A stretch of DNA of 58,895 nt from a virus. Its lineage: Duplodnaviria > Caudoviricetes. Positions 4,303 to 55,754 of this stretch are shown here, piece after piece. The stretch's first letter is position 1, and every line of letters starts with the position of its first letter. The position numbers and the translations under genes were made by a program. Under the pieces are notes generated by a model. The model did no database searches and was not told the DNA's origin. It saw only the letters and a program-made list of their open reading frames with translations. The stretch spans positions 1 through 58,895 of the IMG/VR virus record IMGVR_UViG_3300013006_000001. The stretch is one strand, 5' to 3'.

Positions 4303-4592
4303 TGAATGACGTTGACTTGGCGCTGACCATCTGCACTGCAAGCAGGTGGTTGGATTGCAATGGGCTGGACAAAGAGGACGCCGACCACATCAAGCAGTCG
4401 CTGCGAGATGGTGCCGCTCGCCTGATTGAACTCTCTAGGAATGAGCGGGAGGTGACGGCACAGAGCGAGGCTCTGGCCACCATGCAAAAGCAGTTGCAAG
4501 AGATGTGGGATGCTGTCAAAATGCAGAACTTCTTTGAGAAGATTGACAAGCAGTTGGAAGTGTGGACATCTGATCAACCAGTGGAGGAATGA
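4299..4592 (+). CDS. Hypothetical coiled-coil protein
   Basis: ATGA-coupled ORF in operon. Confidence 0.7.
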   Translation: MMNDVDLALTICTASRWLDCNGLDKEDADHIKQSLRDGAARLIELSRNEREVTAQSEALATMQKQLQEMWDAVKMQNFFEKIDKQLEVWTSDQPVEE

Positions 4593-4936
4593 TGGCAGAA
4601 GAACGAGCGATTCACCCAGCCTCTCAGGAGTTCCTCAAGATTCTGGAGGACATCCGGTCACTGCACTTGGCCAAGTCCAAGGACTACGGCTCAGACACAG
4701 ACCCCTTCGCCAACATCCGCAACGGGGCAGAGTTCGTTGGTATCAGTCCATGGAGAGGGTGCATGGTCAGGGTGTGCGACAAGATTCAACGGCTCAAGAC
4801 CTACTGCCAAAAGGGCACGTTGGTGCATGAGTCTGTTGAGGACACGCTGATGGACCTCGCTTGCTATTCCATCCTGTGTTTGGTACTCCACCGTGAAGGA
4901 GAGAGTGATGCCCGACCAGATGCTGCCGCTCAGTGA
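4589..4936 (+). CDS. DUF1599 / nucleotide-modification-associated domain 1 protein
   Basis: KSKDYG...RVCDKIQRL...ESVEDTLMDLACYSI pattern. Confidence 0.75.
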   Translation: MMAEERAIHPASQEFLKILEDIRSLHLAKSKDYGSDTDPFANIRNGAEFVGISPWRGCMVRVCDKIQRLKTYCQKGTLVHESVEDTLMDLACYSILCLVLHREGESDARPDAAAQ

Positions 4937-5123
4937 GGATGACATAGCACACATGACTCACCGCATGAGGAAGTGTGGCAGTGCGAACTGCTGGACAGGA
5001 ACGAGCGGCACGCTTGCGAACGACGTTCGTCTGCTGCTGCAGGAAAGGGCAAGACTGTTGAACGAACTAGCAAAGAGGAGTGAAGATGACCAGAGCATTC
5101 GGGTACGGGAGGGTATCGACTAG
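4893..5123 (+). CDS. Hypothetical protein
   Basis: Short ORF bridging DUF1599 and recombinase; start may be 4908. Confidence 0.6.
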   Translation: MKERVMPDQMLPLSEDDIAHMTHRMRKCGSANCWTGTSGTLANDVRLLLQERARLLNELAKRSEDDQSIRVREGID

Positions 5124-5847
5124 CGAGCAAGGCAACTCCATCGACAATCAGGAACACCGGCTCACTGAGTACATCAAGAGCAAGGGATGGGAGCTTGGTG
5201 GCATCTACCTCGACGAGGCGGTGTCAGGCAAGAAGGTGGAGGTGGCCAACCGCAAGGCTGGCAAGAAGCTGTGGGACCAGCTACGGGCAGGGGACTGGGT
5301 GATCCTCACCCACCTTGACCGTGCGTTCAGGTCCTCCAAGGATGCACACAACACGCTCTCTGCGTGGATGAAGCTGGGCGTCAAGGTGTACTTCCTTGAC
5401 ATCGGCTGCGACCTCGACACCAGTGAGGGCAGGCTGCTGTTCGGTGTGCTTGCATCCTGTGCTGAGTATGAGAGCAACTGCATTGGCATGAGACAGAAGA
5501 ACATCTGGGCCTACATGCGGCGCAATGGCGTGGCCTATGGCAACGCCCGTCCCTTCGGCTGGATCAAGAAGGATAGGGTCTTGGTGCCGTGCAACAAGGA
5601 GCGTGAGGTTGGCGACTTGGTCGTTCAGCTACGCAAGAAGTTCATGAGTTGGGAGCAAACAGCACTGGCTGTCCTGCACGCTGGCCACCGCAGGCCGCAT
5701 GCAATCAGGGGCCATGGCTACTACAGCCCGTCAACACTGGTCAGTTTGCACCGCGCCGCTCAAGCTGGATACCCAAAGAAACCGCAAGCGTTTTGGCAAG
5801 CCGACGCGAACGCAAGGAAGCAATCCGCAAAGGCAGGTCATGCTTGA
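5080..5847 (+). CDS. Serine recombinase (resolvase/invertase family)
   Basis: YGRVST catalytic Ser motif, DEAVSG, LDRAFR, GRLLFGVLASCAEYE helix E; no large-integrase C-terminal domains seen. Confidence 0.92.
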   Translation: MKMTRAFGYGRVSTSEQGNSIDNQEHRLTEYIKSKGWELGGIYLDEAVSGKKVEVANRKAGKKLWDQLRAGDWVILTHLDRAFRSSKDAHNTLSAWMKLGVKVYFLDIGCDLDTSEGRLLFGVLASCAEYESNCIGMRQKNIWAYMRRNGVAYGNARPFGWIKKDRVLVPCNKEREVGDLVVQLRKKFMSWEQTALAVLHAGHRRPHAIRGHGYYSPSTLVSLHRAAQAGYPKKPQAFWQADANARKQSAKAGHA

Positions 5848-6274
5848 CGGCAATCGCCCTGATGGTGCAGCCATCTAGGAACCTGTCGCCAGCAATGGCC
5901 CTGTCGCATTCGGGCAGGGCCTCAATGGCAAGGCGTATGAAGTTGACCTCATCAAACTCAGGAAGCTGGTACTCAGCCTGCTCTATGCTGACCCTGACCC
6001 CGGGCACTCGCGTTGTCTTCTTGATGCTCTTGAGCATGGAGTTCAAGATGGCACGGGCGAAGTACGCCTTGGGGTAAGGCAGGCGGGCTGGGTCATAGGT
6101 GCGTGCTGCCTTGACCAGCGCGAGGTAGCCGTCACCTTCAAGGTCTTCGACGTACATGGACCGCTGCCAGCTAGGGCGTGACTGGACAAAGTACCTAGCC
6201 AGATTCCTGACTAGGTGCATCCACTCGTCAATTAAGGCGAGGTGTCGCTTTGATAGCTTTGATCTCTTGCTCAT
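5741..6274 (-). CDS. Phage-encoded sigma70-family sigma factor (regions 2 and 4)
   Basis: LVRNLARYF...EDLEGDGYLALVKAARTYDP (region 2); AIEALPECDRAI...TIRAIA (region 4 HTH). Confidence 0.85.
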   Translation of the reverse strand: MSKRSKLSKRHLALIDEWMHLVRNLARYFVQSRPSWQRSMYVEDLEGDGYLALVKAARTYDPARLPYPKAYFARAILNSMLKSIKKTTRVPGVRVSIEQAEYQLPEFDEVNFIRLAIEALPECDRAIAGDRFLDGCTIRAIAVKHDLPLRIASLRSRRLAKTLAVSLGIQLERRGAN

Positions 6275-6452
6275 GGTGGTCGAGACGAACCTCATGTTCC
6301 TTGAGTTCTGCCTTCAGTTCCTCCAGCATCCTTGGCAGCGACTGGATTGTGTCGGCAATCACAGCAACCTTGGCATGTATGGAGAAGGCCCAAGGCACAA
6401 TGGCTGCGCCGAGAGAGATCACCAGCAACCACACCTCTGTCTCTGGGCTCAT
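6228..6452 (-). CDS. Holin-like single-TM + coiled-coil protein
   Basis: WLLVISLGAAIVPWAFSI TM followed by LEELKAELKEHEVRLDHHE; in late cassette. Confidence 0.55.
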   Translation of the reverse strand: MSPETEVWLLVISLGAAIVPWAFSIHAKVAVIADTIQSLPRMLEELKAELKEHEVRLDHHEQEIKAIKATPRLN

Positions 6453-6679
6453 CAGAAATCTCCGTTCACCATGCTCAACAAAATTTTCCCAGCCACCTTG
6501 GCTATCTTCCCTGTTCTCATGTGGCCAAGGATTACGTCGATGACCTGTTGCTCTTGCCCTTCCGCAAAGCTGTACAAGTGGCAATGACCACCGTAGGTTG
6601 CGGAGATTCTCAGGATAGACTCTCCTGCGCCTGAGCTTTCATTTCGTTCCAGTCTGTTTTTTTCCGGTTCGTAAACCAT
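6452..6679 (-). CDS. Hypothetical protein
   Basis: Short ORF coupled to downstream gene; start uncertain. Confidence 0.5.
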   Translation of the reverse strand: MVYEPEKNRLERNESSGAGESILRISATYGGHCHLYSFAEGQEQQVIDVILGHMRTGKIAKVAGKILLSMVNGDF

Positions 6680-6933
6680 TTGACGAGCCACTGCGAGATG
6701 ATTGAGATGATGATGGGCAGGACAATCATGGTGAAGATGAAGCCACAACGCCTGTCTTCTTTCACCTTGTTGGCGATAGCTCTCCGGTATTCCTTGATGC
6801 GAACTTCACCTTCAGGGTAGACAGCAATGCCAGCCAGCGCAATTCGTTTTGCGTGGCGAGACATTTCGTCGGCTCTGGTTTGTTCGACGCACAGGTCAGC
6901 AATGCCACTGGCTGTCACTTCTTCTTCTTGCAT
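6610..6933 (-). CDS. Membrane protein
   Basis: FIFTMIVLPIIISIISQWLV TM segment. Confidence 0.65.
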   Translation of the reverse strand: MQEEEVTASGIADLCVEQTRADEMSRHAKRIALAGIAVYPEGEVRIKEYRRAIANKVKEDRRCGFIFTMIVLPIIISIISQWLVKWFTNRKKTDWNEMKAQAQESLS

Positions 6934-7130
6934 ACACAATCCTCTGGACAAATACAGAACGTCCTGTGCCCGTCTCCATGCACAATAAACCCTTTGCCTT
7001 TGCATTCAGCACAGCACTTGGCAGGGACCGGCTCAACTTTTTTTTCTACCATTGCATACGCAGAATATACTGCCACCTCACTGGGGAGGGGCCCCCGTAT
7101 ACCTGCAAAAAACATGAGAAGGTACATCAT
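6915..7130 (-). CDS. Small Cys-rich protein with DnaJ-like CxxCxGxG zinc finger
   Basis: CAECKGKG...CICPEDCVC; hydrophobic N-terminus. Confidence 0.65.
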   Translation of the reverse strand: MMYLLMFFAGIRGPLPSEVAVYSAYAMVEKKVEPVPAKCCAECKGKGFIVHGDGHRTFCICPEDCVCKKKK

Positions 7131-8023
7131 CGCTTCAGCATCCCGATGGTTCCAAGGTCTGGCAGCGTTGTCTGTGGGTAGCCCTGCACATCTGAGTAGG
7201 CCCAGCAGTCGCCGTTGTCCACGCAGATGGCAGCATCATCCGCACGGGAGATGATCATCCCGGGGACAGGGGCAGGGTAGTCAGACGGCCAGTCGTCTGG
7301 CTGGACATTCCACGCACCCCAAGACTGCATCAGGAAGATGACATCGAACGGCCAGAACTGGCGGGTGTAGTCGTAGCCGCCGATGTGCATGTCATGGCCC
7401 CACCCCTTAGATACTCTGGGGTGGTAGTTGCCCTTGGGGTTCTGCGACCACGCAGCCGTCTGGCCTGAGTGGACTCCATACCCGTTGTAGAGGGCATCGC
7501 ATAGGTCTTCCATCGTCTTGATCTGGGTGATGGTGCCGACCTTGTGCTCACTGCACAGTGCCTTGACTGCTGCCGGGGGGCCGCTGCCATTGCCCCACCG
7601 GTTGCCAATGGAGAAGTTGTACTTGCTCAGGTCTACGGCATCGTATTTCTTGCGGGCGAGGAAGCCTACGTCCCGAACGAACCGGGCAGCGCGGGCTGGG
7701 CTCATGCCCTCACCCCCTCCACGGGCTCCGTATGTGGGCTCTGTGGCCCCTCTGGCGAACCATTCCTCTGCAGACCGCCCTGACAGGATACCTGCCGCCC
7801 TAGCTGAATCCCGGGCGTTCCTGTCGCCATGGCTGGTGCAGTCCGGTCCTGTCTGCACCTCGCTGAAAGCCAGCGGGTCGAGCGCCAACTGGTACTGCCA
7901 GAGCATGGCGCGCTTGCCCTTGCCTGATCCCGGGGCACAGGAGAAATACTGGACGGGCTGGCTGGCGAGGAAGCTGTCCTTCTCTCGCTCGTCCGGCACG
8001 TAGCCTTGGAACATCTCACTCAC
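7127..8023 (-). CDS. Papain-like cysteine peptidase (C1 family)
   Basis: QTGPDCTSH (oxyanion Gln + catalytic Cys), WGHDM (His), MQSWG (NSWG-equivalent). Confidence 0.8.
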   Translation of the reverse strand: MSEMFQGYVPDEREKDSFLASQPVQYFSCAPGSGKGKRAMLWQYQLALDPLAFSEVQTGPDCTSHGDRNARDSARAAGILSGRSAEEWFARGATEPTYGARGGGEGMSPARAARFVRDVGFLARKKYDAVDLSKYNFSIGNRWGNGSGPPAAVKALCSEHKVGTITQIKTMEDLCDALYNGYGVHSGQTAAWSQNPKGNYHPRVSKGWGHDMHIGGYDYTRQFWPFDVIFLMQSWGAWNVQPDDWPSDYPAPVPGMIISRADDAAICVDNGDCWAYSDVQGYPQTTLPDLGTIGMLKR

Positions 8024-8429
8024 ATTGCACCTTCACTGCTAGGCAGTTGTCGTGCAGCTTGTCTGCTACTGTCGAGCCGTCTCCCAACTCTTTATTGAGT
8101 GGCAATGGCTCCAGCCCTACGCCCTCCAGCAGTAGGGTGTCGATGGCTTTGTCCAATCCGGGGTACTTCCCTACGATTGGCTTCTTCGCAAACGCCAGAT
8201 GCAGGGCCTGCTTGTTCATGAGCCGCCATGTCGGCGTGTCCTTGATCAGGTCGCCGCCGTCTCGCTGGGTGATGTCAGCCAACGCTCCGTAGTATGCGGC
8301 CAGATCACGCCGCTCTTCACGTGTGGCTCCACGCATCTTCTTGGATACTTCGCCGCTCTTGTCGCCGCTGGCTGGCACGAACGACAGAGCAAGCAGCATG
8401 GCACAGACTGCGAGCGGGATGTACTTCAT
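8016..8429 (-). CDS. Exported protein with signal peptide/anchor
   Basis: MKYIPLAVCAMLLALSFVPA signal-like N-terminus. Confidence 0.7.
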   Translation of the reverse strand: MKYIPLAVCAMLLALSFVPASGDKSGEVSKKMRGATREERRDLAAYYGALADITQRDGGDLIKDTPTWRLMNKQALHLAFAKKPIVGKYPGLDKAIDTLLLEGVGLEPLPLNKELGDGSTVADKLHDNCLAVKVQCE

Positions 8430-8650
8430 GGAGCCACCTGCAGCAGGGCATGCAGCAAGGCGTTGCATGCAGCAATGACTTCCTTGTCGGTTGATTCGTC
8501 CCTGATCCTCACGATGCTTTCAATGGCATCAAGGGACTTGGGCTTTGAGGATGGCCTACTGTTGTACATCGCAATCAGCTTTGGCCCGAGCGCCGTGGCA
8601 ATTCCAACGATGAGCAACAGGATGATGGCAAGGACTTGATATTGTGTCAT
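8426..8650 (-). CDS. Small membrane-anchored protein
   Basis: VLAIILLLIVGIATALG TM. Confidence 0.7.
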   Translation of the reverse strand: MTQYQVLAIILLLIVGIATALGPKLIAMYNSRPSSKPKSLDAIESIVRIRDESTDKEVIAACNALLHALLQVAP

Positions 8651-9582
8651 ACAACTTTCCCGCCGGGAATCCAGATGGTTACGCCAGCGACTTGTTCGAT
8701 GGCTTGGTAGTTCACAAGGCGATGGGGATCAATCAGTCCCCACCCATACAAGGAATCCCTTCCTGCGTCACCTGCATCCACGCAGGTCTGCGACAGGGCT
8801 TTGGCAATGGCATTCCTGTCCGCCTTCTCGTCGCCACGTAGCGAGGAGACGTACAACGCCAGCACCCCAGCCACGAATGGTGCCGCCATGGAGGTGCCAC
8901 TGAGCGTGGCATACCCACCGTCGAGCCAGCATGAGGTGATCTCCTCGCCGGGGGCAGCGACCAGAATCTCTTTGCCCCTGCTGGAGAACTCACAAGCCTT
9001 GCCGTGTTTGTCCACAGCACCGACACCAATCGTCTCCATGAACGCAGCGGGATAGAGGACAGGCCCGCCGTCGTTGCCAGCAGCACACACCACAATCACA
9101 CCCTTGTCATAGGCGTACTTGATTGCGGCATGCAGTCGGTCTTCAGGCTTGGCTGTGCCCAGAGACATGCAGCAGATGTGGGCACCTGCATCAGCAGCAA
9201 AGCACACGGCTTCCGCCACAGCCTTCTGTGATCCCATGCCTGAATGGCCAAGCACTTTGAGGGAGAGGAGCTTGGCATCAGGCGCAATGCCGTGCATCCC
9301 TCCGTTGGCAGCAATCACACCGGCAACGTGAGTGCCGTGCCCAACCGTGTCTACCTCCACTGAGTCGGAGGAGAAGTTCCGGCGGTCGAGGACTGCATGC
9401 TTCAGGTCTGGGTGAGGAGCGACACCTGAGTCCACAATCGCCACGGTCACACCCAGCCCCTTGGTGCGTGACCAAAGGGCCGGGATGCCGTATGACGAAA
9501 CACCCCAGTCGATTACGCCAGTGCCGCTCTTGGGCAGGACGGCAAGCTCGACTCGGTATGGTGGCAGATGTACAAAGCTCAC
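8647..9582 (-). CDS. Subtilisin-like serine protease (S8)
   Basis: Complete triad motifs IVDSGV, GHGTHVAG, SGTSMAAP; AAGN oxyanion; no evident signal peptide or long prodomain. Confidence 0.96.
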   Translation of the reverse strand: MSFVHLPPYRVELAVLPKSGTGVIDWGVSSYGIPALWSRTKGLGVTVAIVDSGVAPHPDLKHAVLDRRNFSSDSVEVDTVGHGTHVAGVIAANGGMHGIAPDAKLLSLKVLGHSGMGSQKAVAEAVCFAADAGAHICCMSLGTAKPEDRLHAAIKYAYDKGVIVVCAAGNDGGPVLYPAAFMETIGVGAVDKHGKACEFSSRGKEILVAAPGEEITSCWLDGGYATLSGTSMAAPFVAGVLALYVSSLRGDEKADRNAIAKALSQTCVDAGDAGRDSLYGWGLIDPHRLVNYQAIEQVAGVTIWIPGGKVV

Positions 9583-9947
9583 TTGTCGTTCGCACTCTGG
9601 AGGGCTTGCAGGATAGAGATGATCAGCGGCAGCACCACGTTGATGATCACCTGCCAGTCAAAGCCAAGCGCACCGCACTCAGCACCGACAGACAGCAGGT
9701 TAATGTCGCTGGCGTATGCGGCCACGCAGGAGTCTTCGTCCTCGTCGCCGTACATCAATGCGGCAACAGGGGCGAGCGAGTGCTTCGTCTCGTCCTGCAG
9801 AACCGGGAGAACGACACGGGCAATCTTGTCAAGGATGGCCCACTGCTCAATTAGAGGGAGCGTGTCCTTGTACGTCTTGGCGATGGCAACTACCTGCGTG
9901 AGTTGGTCGCGGTGAGCGAGCAACCACCTGACTACTGCGTAATTCAT
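9579..9947 (-). CDS. Hypothetical protein with C-terminal hydrophobic helix
   Basis: First gene after late motif; WQVIINVVLPLIISILQAL. Confidence 0.7.
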   Translation of the reverse strand: MNYAVVRWLLAHRDQLTQVVAIAKTYKDTLPLIEQWAILDKIARVVLPVLQDETKHSLAPVAALMYGDEDEDSCVAAYASDINLLSVGAECGALGFDWQVIINVVLPLIISILQALQSANDK

Positions 9948-9982
9948 GTCTTGGGCCCTAGGGTTTAATTGTCGATTCCTTA

Positions 9983-9997
9983 TACAATCTAATGTCC
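9983..9997 (-). promoter_or_regulatory. Putative phage late promoter
   Basis: GGACATT-AGATT-GTA on - strand, heading the protease cassette. Confidence 0.6.
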
Positions 9998-10016
9998 TCC
10001 GGGCGGAGGCGGCAAT

Positions 10017-10361
10017 TCACCATTCCTGCAACCGGCAAGCCACCTGAATCCTGCCCAACTCTGCCCAGAAAGTAGGGTGGTGGTGTGGGTCTGGGCTGCT
10101 ATGGTCGTTCAGACTGAACGTGCGGGCGTGCGCCCATTCCTCGCACAGGGTATCAAGCATGCCATCCATCGTCTGGCTTGACCTGATCCAGATGACCCCC
10201 CGGAACTCCTCGTCATCAAAGAAGAAGTAGCCCAAGGCTTCCGGCATTTTGTCAGCCGGTCGAAGGAGTATCCTGACCGGGAACAGGAGCGAGAAGTTCT
10301 TGGTTGCAAAGCGTCTGAACTTGCGGACAAGCTGCCGCTGCGACCGCAAATCGTGGGACAT
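10017..10361 (-). CDS. SprT/zincin-like metalloprotein (variant motif)
   Basis: DTLCEEWAHAR (HExxH-like) plus downstream HHHPTFW. Confidence 0.5.
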   Translation of the reverse strand: MSHDLRSQRQLVRKFRRFATKNFSLLFPVRILLRPADKMPEALGYFFFDDEEFRGVIWIRSSQTMDGMLDTLCEEWAHARTFSLNDHSSPDPHHHPTFWAELGRIQVACRLQEW

Positions 10362-10644
10362 CTGACAGCCTCATAACGACAACCCAAGGCTGGTTGTTCC
10401 GGCGGTGAAGGACCACCGGAACCTGATCCTCGGCATCTTCTATGGCCTGCTTCAGCCACACATATAGATTGCCCTTCTCGGTTCGCTTGACCTCCAGATG
10501 GACGCCCTCGCAGCCGTGGACAATGTCCGGGCTTTCGCCACCGCCAGAGAACTGCTGTCCCCTGCGGCTGGGAACACCCATGACGGCTGACCATTCCTTG
10601 GACCCCTCCAGTTCCCCGCGAACGCCTTTCTGCCGTGAGTTCAT
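10252..10644 (-). CDS. Hjc-type (PD-(D/E)xK) Holliday junction resolvase
   Basis: NSRQKGVRGELE...SPDIV...HLEVKR. Confidence 0.8.
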   Translation of the reverse strand: MNSRQKGVRGELEGSKEWSAVMGVPSRRGQQFSGGGESPDIVHGCEGVHLEVKRTEKGNLYVWLKQAIEDAEDQVPVVLHRRNNQPWVVVMRLSDVPRFAVAAAACPQVQTLCNQELLAPVPGQDTPSTG

Positions 10645-10904
10645 TTGACCACCTGCGCCATCTCGGATACTAGCTTGGCTCCTCTACCAGAGAAGTCTCT
10701 GCATTCAATCTCTTGCAGTGTAGGAAATTGCTCGAGGATATACTGACATAGCTTAGTGCCGGACATTCTGTTCATGGCCTTCTCGTTCTTTGCTATCCAA
10801 GTTCCTGCTACGTTCCAGAACGCGAAGTCTCTGGCGTCCCCAAGGGTAGGCCAGTAGACGTAGATGTTGTAGGTCGTTGTCTTCCAGTGTCCAGAGGAGT
10901 TCAT
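10641..10904 (-). CDS. Hypothetical protein
   Basis: ATGA-coupled ORF in operon. Confidence 0.7.
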   Translation of the reverse strand: MNSSGHWKTTTYNIYVYWPTLGDARDFAFWNVAGTWIAKNEKAMNRMSGTKLCQYILEQFPTLQEIECRDFSGRGAKLVSEMAQVVK

Positions 10905-11272
10905 TCGGGGGCCTCCGCTCTAAGTAGGGACTTGATCACATCGTTCACATGCCATGGTTTTTCTTTGGCGGCGCATTGTTCCAGCAGGTAGTGCGTCAGC
11001 GTTTCGCCAGTCTGTATGTCCTGCAAGTCACCGACCAGCCTGCCATATGAATCCCTCAGCCAGTCGGCATTGATGAAGTACAAGCCATCCGGTTCCTGAT
11101 GAAGCTCCACCCAGTCCAGCACCAGCGTCCTGCATGCCTTGGTGCATTCGATACCTTCGAGCACCATGTGCTGAGATACCTCTTGGCCGATGTGAGGCAG
11201 CACCACCCTGATCATCAACGTGTCAGAGCGAGTAACGCGGATGACTCTCACAGTCGGCGGATAGACCTGCAT
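10901..11272 (-). CDS. Staphylococcal nuclease (thermonuclease)-like protein, possibly degenerate
   Basis: VIRVTRSDTL (cf. VxDGDT), LEGIEC, DSYGRLVG (cf. DKYGR). Confidence 0.65.
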   Translation of the reverse strand: MQVYPPTVRVIRVTRSDTLMIRVVLPHIGQEVSQHMVLEGIECTKACRTLVLDWVELHQEPDGLYFINADWLRDSYGRLVGDLQDIQTGETLTHYLLEQCAAKEKPWHVNDVIKSLLRAEAPE

Positions 11273-13758: not shown

Positions 13759-13861
13759 CCTTGACTGGCTCCTTGGTAAAAGTGGTTGGGAACGCATGGT
13801 CTACCTCAAACTGTTGGAGGATGTCCGACAGCACATCATCGGTTAAGTAGTCTTTGGTCAT
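13616..13861 (-). CDS. Hypothetical protein
   Basis: Overlaps helicase stop and downstream gene; GAGGG SD. Confidence 0.45.
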   Translation of the reverse strand: MTKDYLTDDVLSDILQQFEVDHAFPTTFTKEPVKDDSDARLTLFGRARRWLAACFGYGPRDVAAADHQPGVPLEGGEVEGP

Positions 13862-14867
13862 AGCGACGAGCCCTCTCCTTGTTGAATAGTTGTTTCACCC
13901 AAGGGGTTTTGACCTTGTCGCACCCCCAGTTAATGTAGCAGTCTGGAAGCTCAGACATCTTCATGTGGGCGTAGGCACCCTTCAGCGGGTTGCGGTACGT
14001 CCCCACCTTGGACTTGCCATTCTCCAGATCAAACTCCCTTCCGACAACCCGTCCGCGAGCCTGACCTTCCATGAGCTTCCGGCGGGCCTCAATCTCCTTG
14101 GCCAGCCGCATCTTCTCAATCTCCATCTGGGCCATGGCATCAAGGTCTGCCTGTGTCAGGGGCTCCTTGGCCTGCGCCACGCCCTTCTTCACCGCCACCC
14201 GGATGTCCTCGTCTGCCGTGAGGAACATGTCCACTGAGGTGATGAGCCTGTGATCCAAGGTCGCGTCTGTGCAGTCCACAATCTTGAACCGCGTCTTGCC
14301 ACTGGCAGCGATGGCAGCGATGCGGGACTCAGCCGTTGACCCCGGGAAGTCTACAGTCCCGGGAAGGGGCCTTGTAGCCCTCCCGACGCACTGCAGCCAG
14401 AAGGACCTTGACCGCGTGGGACGCCCTAGGATCAGCGTCTGGGTGGGCGGATGGTCAAATCCTACCGCCACCACCTGACAGTTGACGAGGACCTGCGCCT
14501 CCCCCGACTTAAAGGAGTGCAGCGCAAGGTTGCGTTCCTCGTCTGGCATGGTGCCGTAGACGAACACAGCCTTGATGCCGTAGTTGTTGTTGAGATAATG
14601 GCAGACCCCCTTGGCCGACGCCACAGATGAACAGAACACCACGGTCTGCCCCTCCATCTCCTCCTTGGTGATCAGCGCAATCCGGTGCAGGTTGGCTTCC
14701 TTCTCCACGGCAGCGTTCAGTTGCTGCTGGTTGAAGTCACCGCCCGACATCCTGACGCCTGACAGGTCCAAGCCCTCGACCTTGGAGATAACGCACACCG
14801 GTGGCACAGACCACCCGTTGTCGATAGCCCACTGCATATCATGGTTAACCGTCGCAATCTCGTACAT
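13836..14867 (-). CDS. SF2 DEAD/DEAH-type helicase, C-terminal half (RecA2 domain)
   Basis: Motif IV VVFCSSV, V VGFDHP, VI QCVGRATR; GAGGAGGAGG SD before ATG 14867. Confidence 0.88.
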   Translation of the reverse strand: MYEIATVNHDMQWAIDNGWSVPPVCVISKVEGLDLSGVRMSGGDFNQQQLNAAVEKEANLHRIALITKEEMEGQTVVFCSSVASAKGVCHYLNNNYGIKAVFVYGTMPDEERNLALHSFKSGEAQVLVNCQVVAVGFDHPPTQTLILGRPTRSRSFWLQCVGRATRPLPGTVDFPGSTAESRIAAIAASGKTRFKIVDCTDATLDHRLITSVDMFLTADEDIRVAVKKGVAQAKEPLTQADLDAMAQMEIEKMRLAKEIEARRKLMEGQARGRVVGREFDLENGKSKVGTYRNPLKGAYAHMKMSELPDCYINWGCDKVKTPWVKQLFNKERARRYDQRLLNR

Positions 14868-15378
14868 CGTCGCCCTCCTCCTCTGTTGATCCAACCATTG
14901 CCCGACCGTCCATCCTGAACGGCGTGGCAGTAAACCCAGCCACCATGGCACCACGGTCCTGAAACCACTTCAGCATCCGCCTCACTGGCTCAGACATCAT
15001 CATGTGGGCCTCATCCACAATCACCAGCCTGATCTCCTCAAACCGCTCATACCTAGGCGAACCTCCCCGCCTAGACAGGAGCGTCTGCTTTGACGCCACC
15101 ACAATCTTCGCTGGCCACATCTCATCGGCAGAGTAGTCTGCCATCTCAATGTCGGCATCGCTGTCTGTGATGGCCTTGACCTTGTCGCAAGCCTGCCACA
15201 CCAGTTCCCGCAGCGGACAGATGATGAGCGTCCTGCCATCAATCTGGTCAGCCAGAGCAACGAACATGACCGTCTTGCCCGCACCCGTGAAGACGCCGTT
15301 CAAGACAGCCTTGCGCCCCTCGCGCATGGCTGCAAGATTGGCGTCCACAATCTCTTTCTGATAGTCACGTAGAATCAT
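14845..15378 (-). CDS. SF2 DEAD/DEAH-type helicase, N-terminal half (RecA1 domain)
   Basis: LRDYQ (Q), TGAGKT (Walker A), IVDEAH (II), TATP (III); stops shortly after motif III. Confidence 0.9.
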   Translation of the reverse strand: MILRDYQKEIVDANLAAMREGRKAVLNGVFTGAGKTVMFVALADQIDGRTLIICPLRELVWQACDKVKAITDSDADIEMADYSADEMWPAKIVVASKQTLLSRRGGSPRYERFEEIRLVIVDEAHMMMSEPVRRMLKWFQDRGAMVAGFTATPFRMDGRAMVGSTEEEGDDVRDCDG

Positions 15379-15392
15379 CTGAACCTCCTTTG

Positions 15393-15451
15393 AAAAAAGG
15401 CACCCGGGGAGGGCAGGGGAGGAGGAGGAAAACCCCACCCCCCCCGGGGCC
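15393..15451 (-). terminator. Intrinsic terminator-like hairpin after ssb
   Basis: Long GC stem (ggccccgggg...ccccgggtgcc) followed by U6 on - strand. Confidence 0.7.
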
Positions 15452-15465
15452 GCGCGCAATCCAAA

Positions 15466-32373: not shown

Positions 32374-33141
32374 TTACCAGACTCTTGCCCAAGGAACTAC
32401 GTTGGTTTGGTCAAAGGATGACGCTGTTGACGGGATGTCTGAGTATCCGTCCTTCTTGCCGCTGCACTTGGGGGTGATGGCGAGAGCGAACGTGTTGGCG
32501 GCGCTGCCGATGAACTGCGGCGGTGTGGTCGCAACGAACAGGCACGCTATTCCATACCGAGAGCCTGCATTGAGCGTGTACGAGGACGCGAACGAGCGGG
32601 TGTACAGGGTGTTGGTGTCAGAGAACAGCGATGTGTCGTTAGCGGTTTGTGCAACCAAAGTCGCCGTAGTCTCGTCAAATGTGTACAGGCCGAACTTGGC
32701 GAGAGTGATTCCAGAACCGCCGGTGCCGCTCACCATGGATATCTGAGTTGCGGTGAAGGTGGTCAATGGCGAGAAGAATCCCCATGTAGCCTGCCCGGAC
32801 TGCGTCGGGACGTTGGTCATTGCCGCCGCACTGCGGTTGAACGTCTCGGCCATGTACGGCGTGATGTTCAGGTTGAGTGCAATCCCTGCCACTCTGGCGA
32901 TGGCGCTGGACAGCAGTGAGTCTGCGATTGTCCCGGTTGTCAGCAGGCTGGCGTCGGTGACCGCGTCCGCTGACAGGAAGTACGTCAGCGAGTTGTATGC
33001 TGTTGAACCGTCGCCAAACTTGCACCGACGAGAGTCTGTCTCATACCCGATGACGCCGTACCCAAGCACCGGGTTCGCAGCCGCCATCGCTGCCGCTGTG
33101 TTGCGGATATGCTCAAACGTAACTCGGGTTGCGAACTCCAT
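32374..33141 (-). CDS. Short tail fibre/spike (Mtd/hyaluronidase-type N-terminal domain)
   Basis: ANPVLGYGVIGYETD..KFGDG.TAYNSLTY; C-domain paralogous to the 614-aa fibre. Confidence 0.75.
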   Translation of the reverse strand: MEFATRVTFEHIRNTAAAMAAANPVLGYGVIGYETDSRRCKFGDGSTAYNSLTYFLSADAVTDASLLTTGTIADSLLSSAIARVAGIALNLNITPYMAETFNRSAAAMTNVPTQSGQATWGFFSPLTTFTATQISMVSGTGGSGITLAKFGLYTFDETTATLVAQTANDTSLFSDTNTLYTRSFASSYTLNAGSRYGIACLFVATTPPQFIGSAANTFALAITPKCSGKKDGYSDIPSTASSFDQTNVVPWARVW

Positions 33142-33498
33142 TCATAGCCCCGATGCTTCCAGAAACGCGGCGTCAACGGCAGCGGAGTCCATGCCGAAAC
33201 CAGCAGCCATTTGAGCCAACATGCTGCTAGAGCGATGGATAACTGGCTCATACTCCCACTCGATTTGCGTCTCTTCTCTGACGCTGTCTGGCAGGGCAGC
33301 TATGGCTGCGTCAACCTGCGCTAGCGTGATGCCGTGACGCACCAGCCACTTGCGTATTTGTGCAGCAGTCACTGAGTCCGGCGTGACCGGAGGCGAGTCA
33401 GGCGCAGACTGATTTGTTCCGCAGTAGTTGCCGTCATCGTCATATGCTTTCCACGTTTTCAGTCCGTCTACAATCCCGATGTATTCAGTGCGTCCCAT
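33142..33498 (-). CDS. Tail fibre assembly chaperone-like protein
   Basis: VTAAQIRKWL...IEWEY...VDAAFLEA, a pattern commonly found after fibre genes. Confidence 0.6.
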   Translation of the reverse strand: MGRTEYIGIVDGLKTWKAYDDDGNYCGTNQSAPDSPPVTPDSVTAAQIRKWLVRHGITLAQVDAAIAALPDSVREETQIEWEYEPVIHRSSSMLAQMAAGFGMDSAAVDAAFLEASGL

Positions 33499-35342
33499 TA
33501 TGTGAACCTTGCAAAAGGAAGCGTTCCATTGTTGACAAGAGTGCCGGTGGTGGCGCAGCTTGTCGGCAGGTCTGTCTGCGATAATACTTGACCGGACACG
33601 CGCGGGGTAATATTGGCCGATAGTCCTGTAGACTGAACTCTTGTGGTCATGTTACCCATTGTGGTTCCAGTGTTGAGAACAGCGACCCCGTACTTAGTCC
33701 CAGCCGTGAGGGTGTACGAGGTTGGGTAACCACCGGCGGAAGCAAGCACGCGACTGTACGCGGTATTAATTGCGGCGAAGTTCGCAGTGTTGCTGGCAGT
33801 GCGAGCAACGAGGGTGGCTGTCGTTCCGTCGAAAGTGTACAAGCCGAACCTAGACAACGTCAGACCAGAAGACGCGACGCTGCTGCTGTACATTGTAATC
33901 GTCGTTATCGTTTTTGTAACCAGCGGTGTGAAGAAAGTCATCCACATATTACCAGTTTGGAAAGTGGTGCTTCCAGACGCCAGCATGGACGGGAAAACTT
34001 CGACAGCGGTACCATCACCTCCCAGCCAATTGTCAAGATACGAGATTGTCGGTATGTTGGCACTCAGCCTTGCGTCGGCAAGGGTGCCAGTGAGGTCGGA
34101 CGCGAGCCCGCTCGTTGCGACAGTTGCCAGACCTGTCACTGCGGACGAAGCAATCGACGCAGCAGTTGTCAACACGCCCGATGTGGTGGTCACAACAATC
34201 TGGCCGGACGTTGAGCCGATTGCGCCTGCGTTTGTGATGTTGCCGTGAGTATGCGACAGCGTGGAACTTGGGGTGCGGCTGTCAGATAAACGTGTGTCAT
34301 TTCCTTTCACGACCTGACCGCTGGTGGCATCCCCTGCTGCCGCAACGTCAAGCGAGGACGAAGTACCAAGCGTCGGCTTTGAGGTGAGGTCGGCATACAG
34401 CCCGGATGTGGCAACCGTGGCAAGTGTTGGCGTGCCTGTGATGGAGGCATACGGCAGGCTGGTTACTGGGGCGGCAACACTGATGGTCCCGTCGCCTGCG
34501 ATTGTGGTGTTGGACCCCTGTTTGACCCCGCCCAAAACGCTCGACGTTGCAACCGGTAGTGTGTAGGCAGATGGCGTGCCTGTTAAATCGGAGTAACTCC
34601 CCGAAGTTGCAACCGTAGCCAGCGTGGGCGTGCCGGTGATGGAAGAGTATGGGAGGCTGGTGACCGGTGCCGCCACAGAGATTGTGCCGTCGCCGCCAAT
34701 GGTGACGTTGCTACCCTGCTTGACCCCTCCCAAAACGCTCGCCGTAGCCACCGGCAGGGTGTATTCGGACGGGATGGTGGGCTTTCCGGTAAGGTCGCTG
34801 TAGTTGTTGGAGGTCGCCACGGCCCCTAGGCCCGTAATCGTGCCCGCCGACTGGGTGCCGGTGTGATTGGACCTCTGTATGGCGTAAGCCTGCACAGCGG
34901 CGTCTGCGGTGCCCACAAACGCAGTTGTGGGTATCTGCTGGCTGATGTTCCCGGACGCAGGGCTGGGCACGGTCGGGGTGCCAGTGAAAGCTGGGGAATT
35001 TAGGGTGGCGAACGAGCCTAGGGCGGCTTTCCCGTCAAGCTCGGCACGAAGGCCGGTCACCTGAGCAACGGCCAACTGGACAGCATCGGACCCGCCGGTT
35101 CCATGAGATGAAGCATGCTGGGACGGGGCGAAGCTGGCTGGCTTGTTGAGCAGCGCAGCCCACTCAGTTGATCCGCTGAAGTAGGTCAGTGAGTTGTAGG
35201 CAGTGACGCCGTCGCCCAGCTTGGCCCGATAGGTGTCCGTCTCATAGGCGATGACGCCATACCCCACCACCGGATTGGCAGCAGTGAACCCCGCCGCCGT
35301 GTTGCGGATATGGTCGAACGCTACTTTTGTGGTGAAGCTCAT
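33498..35342 (-). CDS. Tail fibre protein
   Basis: Mtd-type N-domain, SPAFTGTPT, tandem YTLPVAT.SVLGGVKQG repeats, VATSG.Y.DL motifs. Confidence 0.85.
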   Translation of the reverse strand: MSFTTKVAFDHIRNTAAGFTAANPVVGYGVIAYETDTYRAKLGDGVTAYNSLTYFSGSTEWAALLNKPASFAPSQHASSHGTGGSDAVQLAVAQVTGLRAELDGKAALGSFATLNSPAFTGTPTVPSPASGNISQQIPTTAFVGTADAAVQAYAIQRSNHTGTQSAGTITGLGAVATSNNYSDLTGKPTIPSEYTLPVATASVLGGVKQGSNVTIGGDGTISVAAPVTSLPYSSITGTPTLATVATSGSYSDLTGTPSAYTLPVATSSVLGGVKQGSNTTIAGDGTISVAAPVTSLPYASITGTPTLATVATSGLYADLTSKPTLGTSSSLDVAAAGDATSGQVVKGNDTRLSDSRTPSSTLSHTHGNITNAGAIGSTSGQIVVTTTSGVLTTAASIASSAVTGLATVATSGLASDLTGTLADARLSANIPTISYLDNWLGGDGTAVEVFPSMLASGSTTFQTGNMWMTFFTPLVTKTITTITMYSSSVASSGLTLSRFGLYTFDGTTATLVARTASNTANFAAINTAYSRVLASAGGYPTSYTLTAGTKYGVAVLNTGTTMGNMTTRVQSTGLSANITPRVSGQVLSQTDLPTSCATTGTLVNNGTLPFARFT

Positions 35343-35572
35343 TGAATGGTCAGGATCAGTGGTGACACCGTCCCGCCTTCCGTCAGGCCAATCAAGTTCC
35401 CGTTACCCGCCCCCGACACAGCATAGTCCAGTTCCAGCCAACGCTTGACGCCATCGCCAATCTTGAAGAAGTGCAAGTCAGTGTCATATCCGGGTTCCCC
35501 CGGAAGCAAGATTGGGTTCTTGGTCCTCCACTCTTCGGTTGAGCCGCGACGTACCTCAATCTTTGCCATCAC
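35339..35572 (-). CDS. Stand-alone Mtd/hyaluronidase N-terminal domain protein
   Basis: RRGSTEEW..KNPILLPGEPGYDTD..KIGDG..W.EL.Y. Confidence 0.75.
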   Translation of the reverse strand: MMAKIEVRRGSTEEWRTKNPILLPGEPGYDTDLHFFKIGDGVKRWLELDYAVSGAGNGNLIGLTEGGTVSPLILTIQ

Positions 35573-46545: not shown

Positions 46546-47466
46546 TCACTCGTCTTGTTGCAATGCACCAGCACCAGCGGTCACCGGAGCGGCGATTCCG
46601 TACTTGCGGAGGATGCGGATTTGATCCTCTGTCCCGGGGAACATGACGTAGTTCCTTGACCCATAGCCACCAAACTGCCGTTGGTGCGGCGCGAGGAAGC
46701 GGGACATGCCGTCCCAGTACCGGACGCCCGGAACTCCGTTGTCAAAAAGAGCTTTTGAAACCTGTTGCTTTACCTTGTCCTTGTAGCCGACGTTGAACGC
46801 CGCATCGTCCGGTAGCCTGCGGAGGATGTCAGGAGTTCTCCCCATTGACTCATACAATCCTCGTCCAGTCCACTTGTCTGGAGATTCCATTACTGGAAAT
46901 CCAAATTTCTCGGCTACTCTACGAACGCTCTCGGGCTGACTGTTGAAGTCTGCGTCCCAGTCCAGAAGCGAGTCCTCTGGGTGGGCTATCTCAAGCTCGT
47001 ATCCAGTGCCAAGTTTCTTTATCGCCTCTTCTGTATCAAAGTTCGGGTCGTAATCGGCGTTCTTGGCCCGCTTTCCAATGGTGTGTTCTATAGCCTGTGC
47101 CGGATAATCAAACCCCATCCAGTCGTCATCATTCAGTGCAGTCAGGTAGTTTTTCTGTCTTGGATCAAAGCCTTGAAGGTTGTGAACAACATCCATCACA
47201 TCCTCTGGAAGAGCATCGTCCGGTAACACTCTCAGAAAGTCTTCTCGCAACTTTCTGTAGGACAGGTTGCGGCGGTAGTCAGCAGCGGTCTTCTCTTTTC
47301 CGGCGCTGTAGTGACCGTATGCGTAAGCCTGATTCTTTTCACCTGTCCCAATAAACTTGGGGTCGAGCTTATCGTAGTGGTACGGCAAAGGGCTGCCATG
47401 GAATGAGTTGATTGGTTTTCCAACCAGCCTCCTGATGCCATCGACCAGTTCTTCGTTTGTTGCCAT
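46546..47466 (-). CDS. Stand-alone polyvalent-protein domain (ART-PolyVal-like)
   Basis: FHGSP...KFIGTGEKNQAYAYGHY...GVPGVRYWDG...SRNYVMF. Confidence 0.65.
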   Translation of the reverse strand: MATNEELVDGIRRLVGKPINSFHGSPLPYHYDKLDPKFIGTGEKNQAYAYGHYSAGKEKTAADYRRNLSYRKLREDFLRVLPDDALPEDVMDVVHNLQGFDPRQKNYLTALNDDDWMGFDYPAQAIEHTIGKRAKNADYDPNFDTEEAIKKLGTGYELEIAHPEDSLLDWDADFNSQPESVRRVAEKFGFPVMESPDKWTGRGLYESMGRTPDILRRLPDDAAFNVGYKDKVKQQVSKALFDNGVPGVRYWDGMSRFLAPHQRQFGGYGSRNYVMFPGTEDQIRILRKYGIAAPVTAGAGALQQDE

Positions 47467-55364: not shown

Positions 55365-55754
55365 ATGAAAGCAGACATTGCCCAGAAGTGGGCTGCTGCT
55401 CTGTTGAGCGGCGAATACAAGCAGGGCCGCAGCGGCCTGAAGACTTTCGACGTTGCTGCAGATCACACCGTGACAACTCGCCACTGCTGCCTTGGAGTCC
55501 TCTGCGATATCTTCGCAAAGGAGACAGGCTGCGGCGGGTGGAACGCAGGCACGTTCGTGATCAGTTCAACTGAGAAGGACAGCGGCATCCCGCCAGAGGA
55601 AGTCCAGAGATGGGCTGGCATGAGGTTTCGGAACCCAAATGTACCGCTCTTGACCTTGACCGGAACTCAGACGCTGGCTGGTCTGAATGACTCAGGCAAT
55701 TACAGTTTCGAGGAGTTGGCAGAAATCATCCTTACCCAGCAGGAGAAGTTATGA
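55365..55754 (+). CDS. Conserved phage hypothetical protein, paralogue 1
   Basis: W..AL.SGEYKQG...CCLGVLCDI...LND...FEELA. Confidence 0.8.
   Translation: MKADIAQKWAAALLSGEYKQGRSGLKTFDVAADHTVTTRHCCLGVLCDIFAKETGCGGWNAGTFVISSTEKDSGIPPEEVQRWAGMRFRNPNVPLLTLTGTQTLAGLNDSGNYSFEELAEIILTQQEKL

Follow-up and report, generated by a model that had tools for sequence, protein, structure and literature searches.

A papain-fold peptidase module in a lake-water phage that may open the host cell

The genome of a lake-water phage (Duplodnaviria; Caudoviricetes, IMG/VR record IMGVR_UViG_3300013006_000001) encodes a gene module, centred on a predicted cysteine peptidase of the papain (C1) fold, that may open the host cell. 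We put the probability that this module is the phage's lysin at roughly one half. Its core would be a three-part extracytoplasmic cysteine-peptidase system, made up of SP150, the C1 peptidase and a CxxC zinc-ribbon protein and followed by small single-pass membrane proteins. All results of the analysis are computational. The window, that is the whole stretch of 58,895 nt, constitutes a complete virus record bounded by terminal repeats of 123 nt, so claims about the entire genome are fair at the sensitivity of HMM searches. The features of the region are:

9948..10016, minus strand: gap upstream of the operon, 69 nt, with a hairpin after the preceding gene and then an AT-rich stretch
9579..9947, minus strand: orfA, 122 aa, with a C-terminal hydrophobic helix at residues about 91-119
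8647..9582, minus strand: predicted S8 subtilase of the ISP type, 311 aa, PF00082 E 1.6e-53
8426..8650, minus strand: TM74, 74 aa, hydrophobic helix at the N-terminus, C-terminal half soluble; ATGA overlap on both sides
8016..8429, minus strand: SP150, 137 aa from the likely start Met at 8429 (longest ORF 8016-8468, 150 aa)
7127..8023, minus strand: predicted C1-fold cysteine peptidase, 298 aa; the gene callers' start is the Met at 8014
6915..7130, minus strand: CxxC protein, Cys-rich, 71 aa, with a CxxCxGxG...GDGHR...C zinc-ribbon-like motif
6610..6864, minus strand: TM131, 84 aa from the likely start Met at 6864 (longest ORF 6610-7005)
6228..6452, minus strand: 74-aa protein, likely start 6452 (longest ORF 6228-6584), with GGAG 8 nt before the ATG
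5741..6295, minus strand: phage sigma factor (Sigma70_r2), a neighbour outside the module proper that overlaps the end of the 74-aa gene

The ORFs of the region are real genes. On the minus strand from 9947 to 6228, orfA, the S8 subtilase, TM74, SP150, the C1 peptidase and the CxxC protein overlap start to stop: by GTGA at orfA/S8, by ATGA at S8/TM74, TM74/SP150 and C1/CxxC (at the C1 stop), and by 8 nt at SP150/C1. Two small genes for one-helix membrane proteins, TM131 and the 74-aa protein, complete the region after gaps of ~50 and ~157 nt, using the shorter starts. The tightly coupled operon proposed in the sequence-only reading is thereby borne out, with overlaps linking six genes and gaps before the last two. 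The late-promoter motif it placed ahead of the operon was not recovered: no repeated motif was detected, a 16-nt pattern from the 9948-10016 gap matched itself alone genome-wide at up to 3 mismatches, no motif common to this gap and the other 23 intergenic gaps was seen, and a sigma-70 promoter scan gave numbers at background. The gap is a possible promoter or terminator region. The neighbouring sigma factor matches PF04542 (E 7e-8) and phrog_234, “late sigma transcription factor” (E 1.3e-5), and holds the same position in 16 of 80 related loci, many of which are close relatives or duplicates, so that counts over them are not independent; orfA, which has no Pfam or PHROG match, has a homologue upstream of S8 in 34 of these 80.

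Structure models were made for two proteins, the C1 peptidase and SP150. The AF2 model of the 298-aa protein (pLDDT 88.5, pTM 0.89) has the helical L lobe and beta-barrel R lobe of the papain fold, by which the protein is a predicted papain-family (C1-fold) peptidase. At Z>=8, VIA matched it to 41 chains, the top ranks being taken by C1 enzymes: xylellain (3ois; Z 21.9, rmsd 2.7, 228 aligned residues), pro-Der p 1 (1xkg; Z 20.7), procathepsin B (Z 19.6) and Cwp84 (Z 16.7). Foldseek returned 239 PDB matches at E<=0.001; the matches listed are all C1 enzymes, including xylellain 3ois at E 1.6e-9. Gln57, Cys62, His210 and Trp235 are invariant across 29 aligned sequences, and Gln233 of the window protein stands where most relatives have Asn; it is from their order and spacing, together with the fold match, that the Gln, Cys, His and Asn positions are equated with those of papain. 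A stretch resembling N-S-W-G, as in the papain motif, is present in most relatives. The papain-like cysteine peptidase described earlier is confirmed by its fold and the invariant Gln57, Cys62 and His210, though it goes undetected by Pfam and PHROGs: it falls into no family of either and does not match PF00112 even at E<=1. PF00112 matches weakly in 7 of the 29 aligned relatives (best E 0.013), and its gathering score of 20.7 bits is exceeded by the relative in L109 (22.2) and approached by P0261 (20.2). The window's C1 protein has no signal peptide, and its N-terminus is short and pro-segment-like, with residues 1 to about 35 aligning where the pro-regions of zymogen structures end.

SP150, previously described as a signal-peptide protein, does have a hydrophobic N-terminal signal or anchor in its 150-aa ORF. 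Its AF2 model is helical (pLDDT 91.0), and a fold search gave no informative match (best Z 6.6). The SP150 family alignment matches the N-domain of P0158 (hhalign probability 85%, E 5.9e-6), and SP150 adjoins C1 even in loci without S8 (L007, L010, L012). These results suggest that SP150 is an exported or membrane-anchored helical protein and a partner of the C1 peptidase. The CxxCxGxG motif reported for the 71-aa ORF is present and also terminates P0158; the protein matches the C-terminus of P0184 in a pairwise comparison (BLASTP E 4e-8), and in L008 and L009 it is either fused to C1 or encoded after it. Judged from sequence, some distant relatives have an SP150-like part, the peptidase and a CxxC part fused in one chain behind an N-terminal membrane anchor. 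Thioredoxin-fold modules replace the CxxC protein in relatives.

Small Cys-rich and hydrophobic ORFs adjoining two peptidases might also suggest a cluster that makes or processes small secreted peptides (bacteriocin- or RiPP-like), in which the peptidases cleave leaders and the small ORFs encode precursors or immunity proteins. The wider papain-like fold also includes the C39-type leader peptidases (Z about 7-10) and L109 has a weak match to Peptidase_C39_2 (E 3e-4), but C39 domains fit the model much less well than C1 enzymes do (Z <=10 vs 21.9), and relatives fuse the small proteins to the peptidase as domains, unlike precursors. As the genome also contains no ABC transporter or modification enzyme, we regard such a role as very improbable.

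Relatives of the C1 peptidase number 693 cluster representatives at E<=1e-3, and at least 571 viral contigs carry one; a literature search returned no paper on this C1 family. In some of its members inteins are inserted exactly at the catalytic Cys and His, and inteins usually mark sites indispensable to a genome. The viral contig spread and the inteins at catalytic sites together suggest that the family is strongly conserved.

Several observations bear on where these enzymes act. An N-terminal hydrophobic anchor followed by ~200 aa and the C1 domain was seen in P0145, P0147, P0155, P0158, P0165, P0170 and P0184 (seven sequences inspected), a hydrophobic segment starts within the first 13 residues in 18 of 150 C1 representatives, and the prophage copies in L104, L107 and L109 carry N-terminal anchors. 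Two of the C1 representatives have an RR motif; an RRHFL-type signal opens P0149. P0261 consists of an anchor, C1 and a thioredoxin domain (PF00085, E 1.2e-7, above cut-off). A gene for a WCPYC thioredoxin-like protein with a signal peptide (PF13899, E 1.3e-7) lies two ORFs after C1 in L104, and a thioredoxin-like gene directly follows C1 in L084. Because of these fusions behind anchors, the Tat-like signal and the exported or fused thioredoxins, the family seems active outside the cytoplasm, and the C1 peptidase of the window probably works outside the inner membrane.

Anchored, Tat-type and thioredoxin-linked relatives give location, not substrate, and would also fit an exported envelope protease that is not for lysis and that strips or remodels host surface proteins, for receptor destruction, superinfection exclusion or easier release, with another enzyme opening the wall. 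In fold the enzyme comes nearest to true proteinases, among them Cwp84, which processes an S-layer protein, and the C1 copies located in prophages or their remnants within large Planctomycetota contigs (L011, L104, L106) would suit a gene expressed during lysogeny; the phage's own host is possibly a member of the Planctomycetota. However, most family members are signal-less, for which release through a holin is a better fit than steady secretion, C1 sits with small membrane proteins and in a pre-terminase slot, and no other lysin was found in five phage records, all of which makes this explanation unlikely.

The membrane-protein context was as first described in that orfA, TM74, TM131 and the 74-aa protein, the “about four” small TM proteins, each have one hydrophobic helix. 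BLAST, which undercounts small ORFs, found TM74 homologues in 17 of the 80 loci and TM131 homologues in 26. TM131, in which the hydrophobic helix lies close to the C-terminus and the tail is charged, weakly matches phrog_12206 (E 0.003) and Phage_holin_6_1 (E 0.15) and is a candidate holin or membrane component. The 74-aa protein has an N-terminal hydrophobic helix, a C-terminal coiled coil and a charged tail, a shape that would suit a spanin-like protein as well; it weakly matches phrog_1296, “holin” (E 6.7e-5), and the DUF7365 coiled coil (E 2.9e-4, below the Pfam cut-off). The suggestion that one of the membrane proteins is holin-like thus finds a counterpart in phrog_1296, a single weak match that is the only family-level holin support in the region.

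In 66 of 67 related loci, the ~1 kb downstream of C1 contains the start of one or more ORFs on the same strand that encode a hydrophobic helix. The corresponding fractions are 16% (n=58) and 22% (n=49) for two control stretches lying upstream, and a far-downstream control is also high, at 62% (n=63). S8 is missing from all distant C1 loci and found in the close clade only. In 12 distant loci the surroundings of C1, 137 ORFs in all, yielded no PHROG lysis family. A few small ORFs separate C1 from the large terminase downstream of it in L079, L087 and L104; in L007, C1 is two ORFs upstream of that gene. Counting against lysis are its other settings, in nucleotide metabolism (L090, L091) or the packaging module (L082), and the cellular copies outside prophages (L105, L108).

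The S8 gene encodes an intact subtilisin, as claimed: PF00082 (182 bits, residues 44-282) is its sole Pfam domain, and the triad Asp51/His82/Ser231 and Asn170 stand in their motifs (D-S-G, H-G-T-H and G-T-S-M-A for the triad). A signal peptide and an I9 prodomain are both absent, and the single hydrophobic segment is not N-terminal, lying around the catalytic Ser (227-248). The best solved relatives are the intracellular serine proteases (ISPs) 7y6m (E 4.2e-48), 7xr8 and 2wv7. The alignment with 7y6m begins at query residue 5 and pairs HLPPYRV with RLIPYEV, giving an N-terminal LPPY segment; LIPY/F-type motifs are inhibitory in ISPs. The product looks like an intracellular (ISP) type subtilase and appears cytoplasmic. 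It is 37-45% identical to phage S8 proteins of similar length, and replication genes surround its relatives in Moorella phage MTATph1 and Bacillus phage Tsamsa. A role of the subtilase as a lysis or envelope-degrading enzyme was judged unsupported, given the ISP type, clade restriction and replication-gene context. Clade-specific and co-translated with the module, it might trim the pro-segment of C1 or have cytoplasmic proteins as substrates.

The statement that there is no recognisable endolysin agrees with our searches. No peptidoglycan-hydrolase family was matched by any of 77 ORFs in Pfam and PHROG (E<=1e-3) or by any of 53 unannotated ORFs at E<=1, and six-frame scans with nine such families gave no match, the positive controls being silent for PF00182 and PF05838. 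CHAP and NlpC/P60 profiles had no match in the genome. The nine families are absent from 5 of 5 C1-carrying phage records (the window phage and four others), four of the five being estimated at least 90% complete. The genome's only “endolysin” PHROG match, at 46546-47469 (E 4.6e-4), was rejected as an ART-PolyVal-like protein.

Outside the region, just 15 of 60 ORFs have a Pfam or PHROG match (E<=1e-3), so a lysin of divergent fold, which HMM scans miss, could hide among the others. Were a cryptic canonical endolysin encoded elsewhere, the peptidases might serve phage-protein processing, host takeover or counter-defence, and the membrane proteins would be unrelated. This would suit an S8 enzyme of clearly intracellular type with relatives among the replication genes of MTATph1 and Tsamsa, and an operon that comes after recombination genes (RusA-like, HNH, endonuclease VII). 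We nevertheless doubt it: a cytoplasmic role of C1 clashes with the anchors, Tat-like signal and exported thioredoxins of its relatives, and the head module is >30 kb away, which makes a role in head maturation unlikely.

The idea of protease-based lysis is thus divided. The half that cast the C1 enzyme as an unusual lysis enzyme is strengthened by the export signals, anchors and thioredoxins of relatives, the downstream membrane-protein genes, the pre-terminase position and the lack of a canonical lysin in five records; the half that involved the subtilisin is not upheld, as this is an ISP type without signal or prodomain, absent from distant C1 loci and with relatives among replication genes.

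For lysis by the C1 module, we infer the role itself, the order of events, the parts played by SP150 and the CxxC protein, and the substrate. Late in infection, the signal-less C1 enzyme would accumulate in the cytoplasm, where its short N-terminal pro-like segment may hold it inactive. TM131, the 74-aa protein and perhaps TM74 and orfA would breach the inner membrane in the fashion of holins, and the enzyme would enter the periplasm, with SP150 already present there. It would then cut a load-bearing envelope component, either peptidoglycan, in its peptide portion, or structural proteins of the envelope, while the CxxC protein might maintain the catalytic thiol in its reduced state beyond the cytoplasm or reduce disulfides of the substrate.

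Compared with the papain family (MEROPS C1; bacterial xylellain 3ois, procathepsin B, pro-Der p 1), the window protein shares the two-lobed fold and the order of Gln, Cys, His and Trp. It differs in being about 11-16% identical, with no PF00112 match and with Gln233 for Asn, in having no signal peptide or long I29-type prodomain and a separate SP150 gene instead, and in being phage-encoded, with inteins in many relatives. The ISPs of Bacillus and relatives are the best solved relatives of the S8 protein and share the N-terminal LIPY-type segment, here LPPY. Large Bacillus and Moorella phages also encode compact S8 proteases; their genes in MTATph1 and Tsamsa lie among replication genes, whereas the one described here is translationally coupled to the C1 module. 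We know of no function for any phage ISP-like enzyme.

Holin-endolysin cassettes, including SAR and secreted types, resemble the module in the tight linkage of a predicted hydrolase gene to small membrane-protein genes and, in several relatives, in the location of the C1 gene just upstream of the terminase. The C1 family mixes signal-less with anchored or exported members, and endolysins likewise comprise signal-less and N-terminally anchored or exported members. In contrast to these cassettes, the C1 catalytic domain occurs in no known endolysin family and has no cell-wall-binding domain, C1 is accompanied by two accessory proteins, SP150 and CxxC (or thioredoxin), and no spanin-type lipoprotein came to notice, short of a systematic search.

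As described in PMC10318531, CHAP, NlpC/P60 and Amidase_5 are papain-like Cys-His hydrolases that phages use on wall peptides. The known papain-like peptidoglycan hydrolases are of this NlpC/P60, CHAP and Amidase_5 group and not of C1 (PMC10318531), which counts against the lysis reading; they form a superfamily cluster separate from C1. The pseudomurein endoisopeptidase PeiR (8z4h) is similar to the C1 model at Z 10.5, but C1 enzymes match the model about twice as strongly. Cwp84 of Clostridioides difficile (4ci7) has the C1 fold (Z 16.7, 226 aligned residues) and matures an S-layer protein. Unlike the window enzyme, Cwp84 is a secreted cellular protein with a maturation function and a lectin-like domain and is not phage-encoded, and it is a precedent only for envelope proteins as substrates of C1-family proteases.

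The 3′ end of the minus-strand gene block encodes what may be a lysis system: we put at roughly one in two the probability that an exported or membrane-anchored helical protein (SP150), a papain-fold cysteine peptidase (C1) and a small CxxC protein form a module that, with small membrane proteins, lyses the host, the C1-fold enzyme replacing a canonical endolysin. At 58,895 bp the record is a complete virus, bounded by direct terminal repeats of 123 nt; its G+C content is ~57%, and no tRNA genes were found in the window. The majority of its genes lie on the minus strand in a single long block, transcribed in the order head, terminase, portal, tail, SSB, helicase, endonuclease VII, HNH and RusA-like, which ends in an eight-gene operon followed by a sigma-factor gene. 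The genes of the operon are, in order of transcription:

9579-9947, minus strand, orfA, small protein with a C-terminal helix
8647-9582, minus strand, S8 subtilase
8426-8650, minus strand, TM74, small one-helix protein
8016-8429, minus strand, SP150, with a hydrophobic N-terminus
7127-8023, minus strand, 298-aa C1-fold protein
6915-7130, minus strand, 71-aa CxxCxGxG protein (CxxC)
6610-6864, minus strand, 84-aa one-helix protein (TM131)
6228-6452, minus strand, 74-aa protein, single helix plus coiled coil

The first six genes are coupled via GTGA/ATGA overlaps or an 8-nt overlap, and these overlaps, together with the gene content, bear out the anatomy that had been described for the operon from sequence alone. 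A "late-promoter motif" described upstream of it was not confirmed, as nothing similar recurs elsewhere in the genome; the 69-nt gap 5′ of the operon consists of a hairpin and an AT-rich stretch. Metatranscriptome contigs of 150-355 nt from four lake-water libraries (X3-X6) match, with at most one mismatch, parts of 6632-10907 as well as two pieces of the window near 12.7 and 13.8 kb; because the libraries may contain DNA and the runs were chosen using this stretch, the contigs demonstrate neither transcription nor timing, and uncovered parts carry no meaning.

Other parts of the genome show features of their own. A small serine recombinase gene (5080-5847, plus strand; Resolvase domain, E 1.1e-34) converges on the sigma-factor gene (5741-6295, minus strand), the two overlapping at their 3′ ends, and the pair is kept in many relatives. 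The plus-strand block across the genome ends (4589-4936 and 55751-58681) encodes a "nucleotide modification associated" protein (DUF1599), another that resembles class-II glutamine amidotransferases, and members of the phrog_16683 and L5 gp82 families, which hints at a DNA-modification module; in relatives, a DUF1599-like gene lies immediately upstream of orfA. The helicase gene (13836-15459, minus strand) is split into overlapping ORFs, ResIII/DEAD at 14845-15459 and Helicase_C at 13836-14954, and is undivided in two related loci, L004 (502 aa) and L005 (509 aa); a frameshift or an assembly error may have produced the split, or it may be genuine. The tail-fibre genes (32977-35343) contain internal repeats, a 185-nt unit at 34390 recurring at 34588 and a 166-nt unit at 32977 recurring at 35178, and a major tropism determinant N-terminal domain (Mtd_N) is encoded at 35339-35572.

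No ORF of the window matches a peptidoglycan-hydrolase family in Pfam or PHROG. Six-frame scans of the window and four other phage records carrying C1, four of the five estimated to be at least 90% complete, returned no Phage_lysozyme, SLT, Amidase_2, Peptidase_M15_4, CHAP, NLPC_P60 or Peptidase_M23 in any record, with positive controls detected; the equally empty scans for GH19 (PF00182) and GH108 (PF05838) carry no weight, because their controls were silent. The earlier statement that the genome has no recognisable endolysin therefore holds at the sensitivity of HMM searches, at which most ORFs are unannotated. That a cryptic lysin lies elsewhere among these ORFs, the proteases serving other work, we regard as unlikely.

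The sole "endolysin" match in PHROG, at 46546-47469 on the minus strand (phrog_873, E 4.6e-4), was rejected as a lysin on the basis of a Pfam ART-PolyVal match (E 0.08) and ESM Atlas neighbours from ART-PolyVal/polyvalent-protein clusters. This 307-aa protein, encoded in the head-gene region, resembles the ADP-ribosyltransferase domains of polyvalent proteins. It may be a virion protein, either internal or injected; L005 encodes a homologue in its replication region.

The candidate lysin itself belongs to a large unnamed family. Neither Pfam nor PHROG places the 298-aa protein in a family, even with hits up to E 1 admitted; tblastn found no match among 50,697 isolated-phage records, and a profile of the family matched PDB sequences only at chance level (E 1.2). 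Relatives of the protein comprise 262 clusters in one search and, in an exhaustive search at E ≤ 1e-3, 693 representatives; they occur on at least 571 viral contigs. A model built from 29 sequences (pLDDT 88.5, pTM 0.89) best matches xylellain (Z 21.9, 2.7 rmsd over 228 residues), followed by pro-Der p 1 (Z 20.7), procathepsin B1 (Z 19.6) and Cwp84 (Z 16.7); the pseudomurein peptidase PeiR scores Z 10.5 and C39 domains ~Z 7-10. No other fold matches as well as the papain-family enzymes, and we give hardly any credence to peptide processing by the module. Gln57, Cys62, His210 and Trp235 are invariant across the 29 sequences, and Gln233 occupies the Asn position in the window protein. Alignments start at residue 1 for zymogen structures and at ~19-37 for mature enzymes, so the first ~30 residues of the model look like a short pro-segment. 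The window protein falls below the Pfam threshold for PF00112 (C1), which 7 of the 29 relatives match weakly and one distant relative, L109, passes; we class it as a new, divergent subfamily of C1 fold.

The family also looks like a new and frequent host of inteins. Intein, Hint or LAGLIDADG domains are present in 15 of the 25 long relatives scanned (P0121, P0128, P0131, P0133, P0135, P0138, P0152, P0162, P0172, P0197, P0200, P0201, P0208, P0221 and P0255), some of which contain two inteins. Two insertion sites were seen: the junction of Asp61 with the catalytic Cys62, which becomes the +1 residue, and the position directly after the catalytic His.

Fusions tie the C1 enzyme to its neighbours. 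Inspection of seven long intein-free relatives revealed an N-terminal hydrophobic anchor, a ~200-aa domain and the C1 domain; hhalign shows homology of the N-domain with SP150 (probability 85%, E 5.9e-6), and two fused relatives terminate in the CxxCxGxG...GDGHR...C motif of the 71-aa protein (BLASTP E 4e-8). As SP150, C1 and CxxC are thus joined in one protein elsewhere, these sequences are strong evidence that the three would work together. SP150 as an I29-type prodomain or a peptidoglycan-binding domain was unsupported, the fold search returning generic helical bundles at best (Z 6.6).

Signs of where the family acts come from its relatives. A hydrophobic segment begins within the first 13 residues of 18 of 150 representatives, with an RR motif in 2, and the N-terminus of P0149 is a Tat-like signal; the remaining representatives, the window protein included, are without such a segment. 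P0261 consists of an anchor, C1 and Thioredoxin (PF00085, E 1.2e-7). In the Planctomycetota prophage L104, genes for an SP150-like protein with a signal peptide, an anchored C1 and, two ORFs beyond C1, a WCPYC thioredoxin-like protein, likewise with a signal peptide, sit just upstream of the terminase and portal genes; in L084, a signal-peptide thioredoxin-like gene immediately follows C1. These anchors, signals and thioredoxin-fold partners suggest action outside the cytoplasm, and the exported thiol-redox link would suit either a periplasmic thiol kept reduced or an attack on disulfide-rich substrates. A protease exported for some purpose other than lysis could bear the same marks, a reading that we hold to be improbable. 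On the side of the proposed lysis module, 66 of 67 loci have an ORF with a hydrophobic helix that starts no more than ~1 kb downstream of C1; such ORFs were found in 16% and 22% of upstream control stretches and in 62% of those far downstream.

Synteny of S8, C1 and membrane-protein genes in related phages, which had been proposed as a check, holds in part. In the close clade, where C1 is 52-66% identical, the order orfA, S8, TM74, SP150, C1, CxxC, TM131, 74-aa gene and sigma factor is conserved, followed by a convergent resolvase gene, but S8 is absent from every distant C1 locus, where SP150 + C1 or C1 + CxxC are retained. BLAST-based counts in 80 loci, which undercount small ORFs and include several duplicate loci, gave homologues of C1 in 72, S8 in 52, SP150 in 44, the resolvase in 41, orfA in 34, TM131 in 26, TM74 in 17, the sigma factor in 16, CxxC in 14 and the 74-aa gene in 5.

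The subtilase is intact (PF00082, E 1.6e-53; Asp51, His82 and Ser231 present), without a signal peptide or prodomain. Its closest solved relatives are intracellular serine proteases, which align from residue 5 and whose LIPY corresponds to its LPPY segment; by these features it is of the intracellular (ISP) type. Compact S8 genes like this one are present in 87 records of isolated phages, mostly Bacillus phages, and lie among replication genes in both isolated phages inspected. As the ISP-type subtilase illustrates, phages of very different hosts encode intracellular subtilisins. Given the intracellular type, the replication-gene context and the absence from distant loci, we do not accept the subtilisin as the envelope-degrading lysis enzyme it had been proposed to be. 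It might, by pure inference, trim the C1 pro-segment, for which the operon coupling leaves room.

Host assignment through isolated relatives failed: there is no close one, and the best terminase matches, to a Pelagibacter phage and an uncultured virus, are only 24-27% identical. The whole stretch is present in two lake-water DNA runs, possibly its source. Of 13 genome-collection loci with a C1 relative, Planctomycetota bins account for eight (from 7 bins), including two on contigs of 0.9 and 5.5 Mb. The genome-collection relatives that are closest, five in number, fall in bins of five different phyla, on contigs of 3.6-55 kb, three of them phage-sized, and may be mis-binned. In samples of 400 genomes per phylum, centre genome excluded, the family was found in 5 Planctomycetota genomes and in 0, 0 and 1 genomes of the phyla to which the Rubrivivax, Synechococcaceae and Chitinophagales bins belong, respectively. 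A prophage-like stretch on a Planctomycetota contig (L106, G392:C22:216500-233500) encodes a major capsid protein 31% identical to that of the window (E 1e-46) and, beside it, a scaffold-like protein; it also carries a serine recombinase gene and a C1 homologue, after which comes a signal-peptide protein of 132 aa. For the wider lineage a planctomycete host is likely, for the window phage itself only plausible. In a Thermoguttaceae bin (L011, 922-kb contig), a compact element has genes for a large serine recombinase, a 690-aa protein with a C-terminal capsid domain, a protein of 209 aa, C1, a protein of 150 aa and a cement protein, in that order, ahead of an IS66 transposase; it is a prophage remnant or else a small island that encodes a capsid.

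The sequence-only reading was largely right in its observation and half right in its interpretation: the C1 module as lysis enzyme, with peptidoglycan peptides or envelope proteins as its possible target, is the most likely reading, whereas the envelope role of the subtilisin falls away. A bolder version, which we consider doubtful, is that phages that have abandoned peptidoglycan-hydrolase endolysins lyse their hosts through a papain-family proteinase, an exported helical partner and a thiol-redox module that digest disulfide-rich structural envelope proteins instead of, or alongside, peptidoglycan. It is kept alive by the proteinase-like fold, the thioredoxin link and the possible planctomycete host, and would cover a large, widespread group of phages from lakes and other environments, some of which probably infect Planctomycetota. 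If true, proteolytic lysis of a protein-reinforced envelope would be a lysis principle undescribed for tailed phages.

If the C1 module is the lysin, phage lysis would gain a new catalytic class as well as a new multi-part design, in which an enzyme is joined by an exported partner and a redox helper, and the module would account for the host exit of a very common, uncultured phage group. The composition of the planctomycete envelope, a matter of dispute, would also become easier to address, since the substrate of the enzyme would reveal the load-bearing layer. No description of the C1 family or of a C1-type phage lysin was found in the abstracts searched, and known peptidoglycan-cutting papain-like enzymes are placed in the NlpC/P60-CHAP-Amidase group (PMC10318531).

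Among 137 ORFs around C1 in 12 distant loci, no PHROG lysis family was found, a scan that is uninformative because the neighbours mostly lack any PHROG match. The C1 gene occupies other genomic settings in L082, L090 and L091, and lies shortly upstream of the large terminase gene in L079, L087, L104 and L007. In lambdoid phages the slot upstream of the terminase is the site of the lysis genes, and the placement of C1 in these four loci resembles it.
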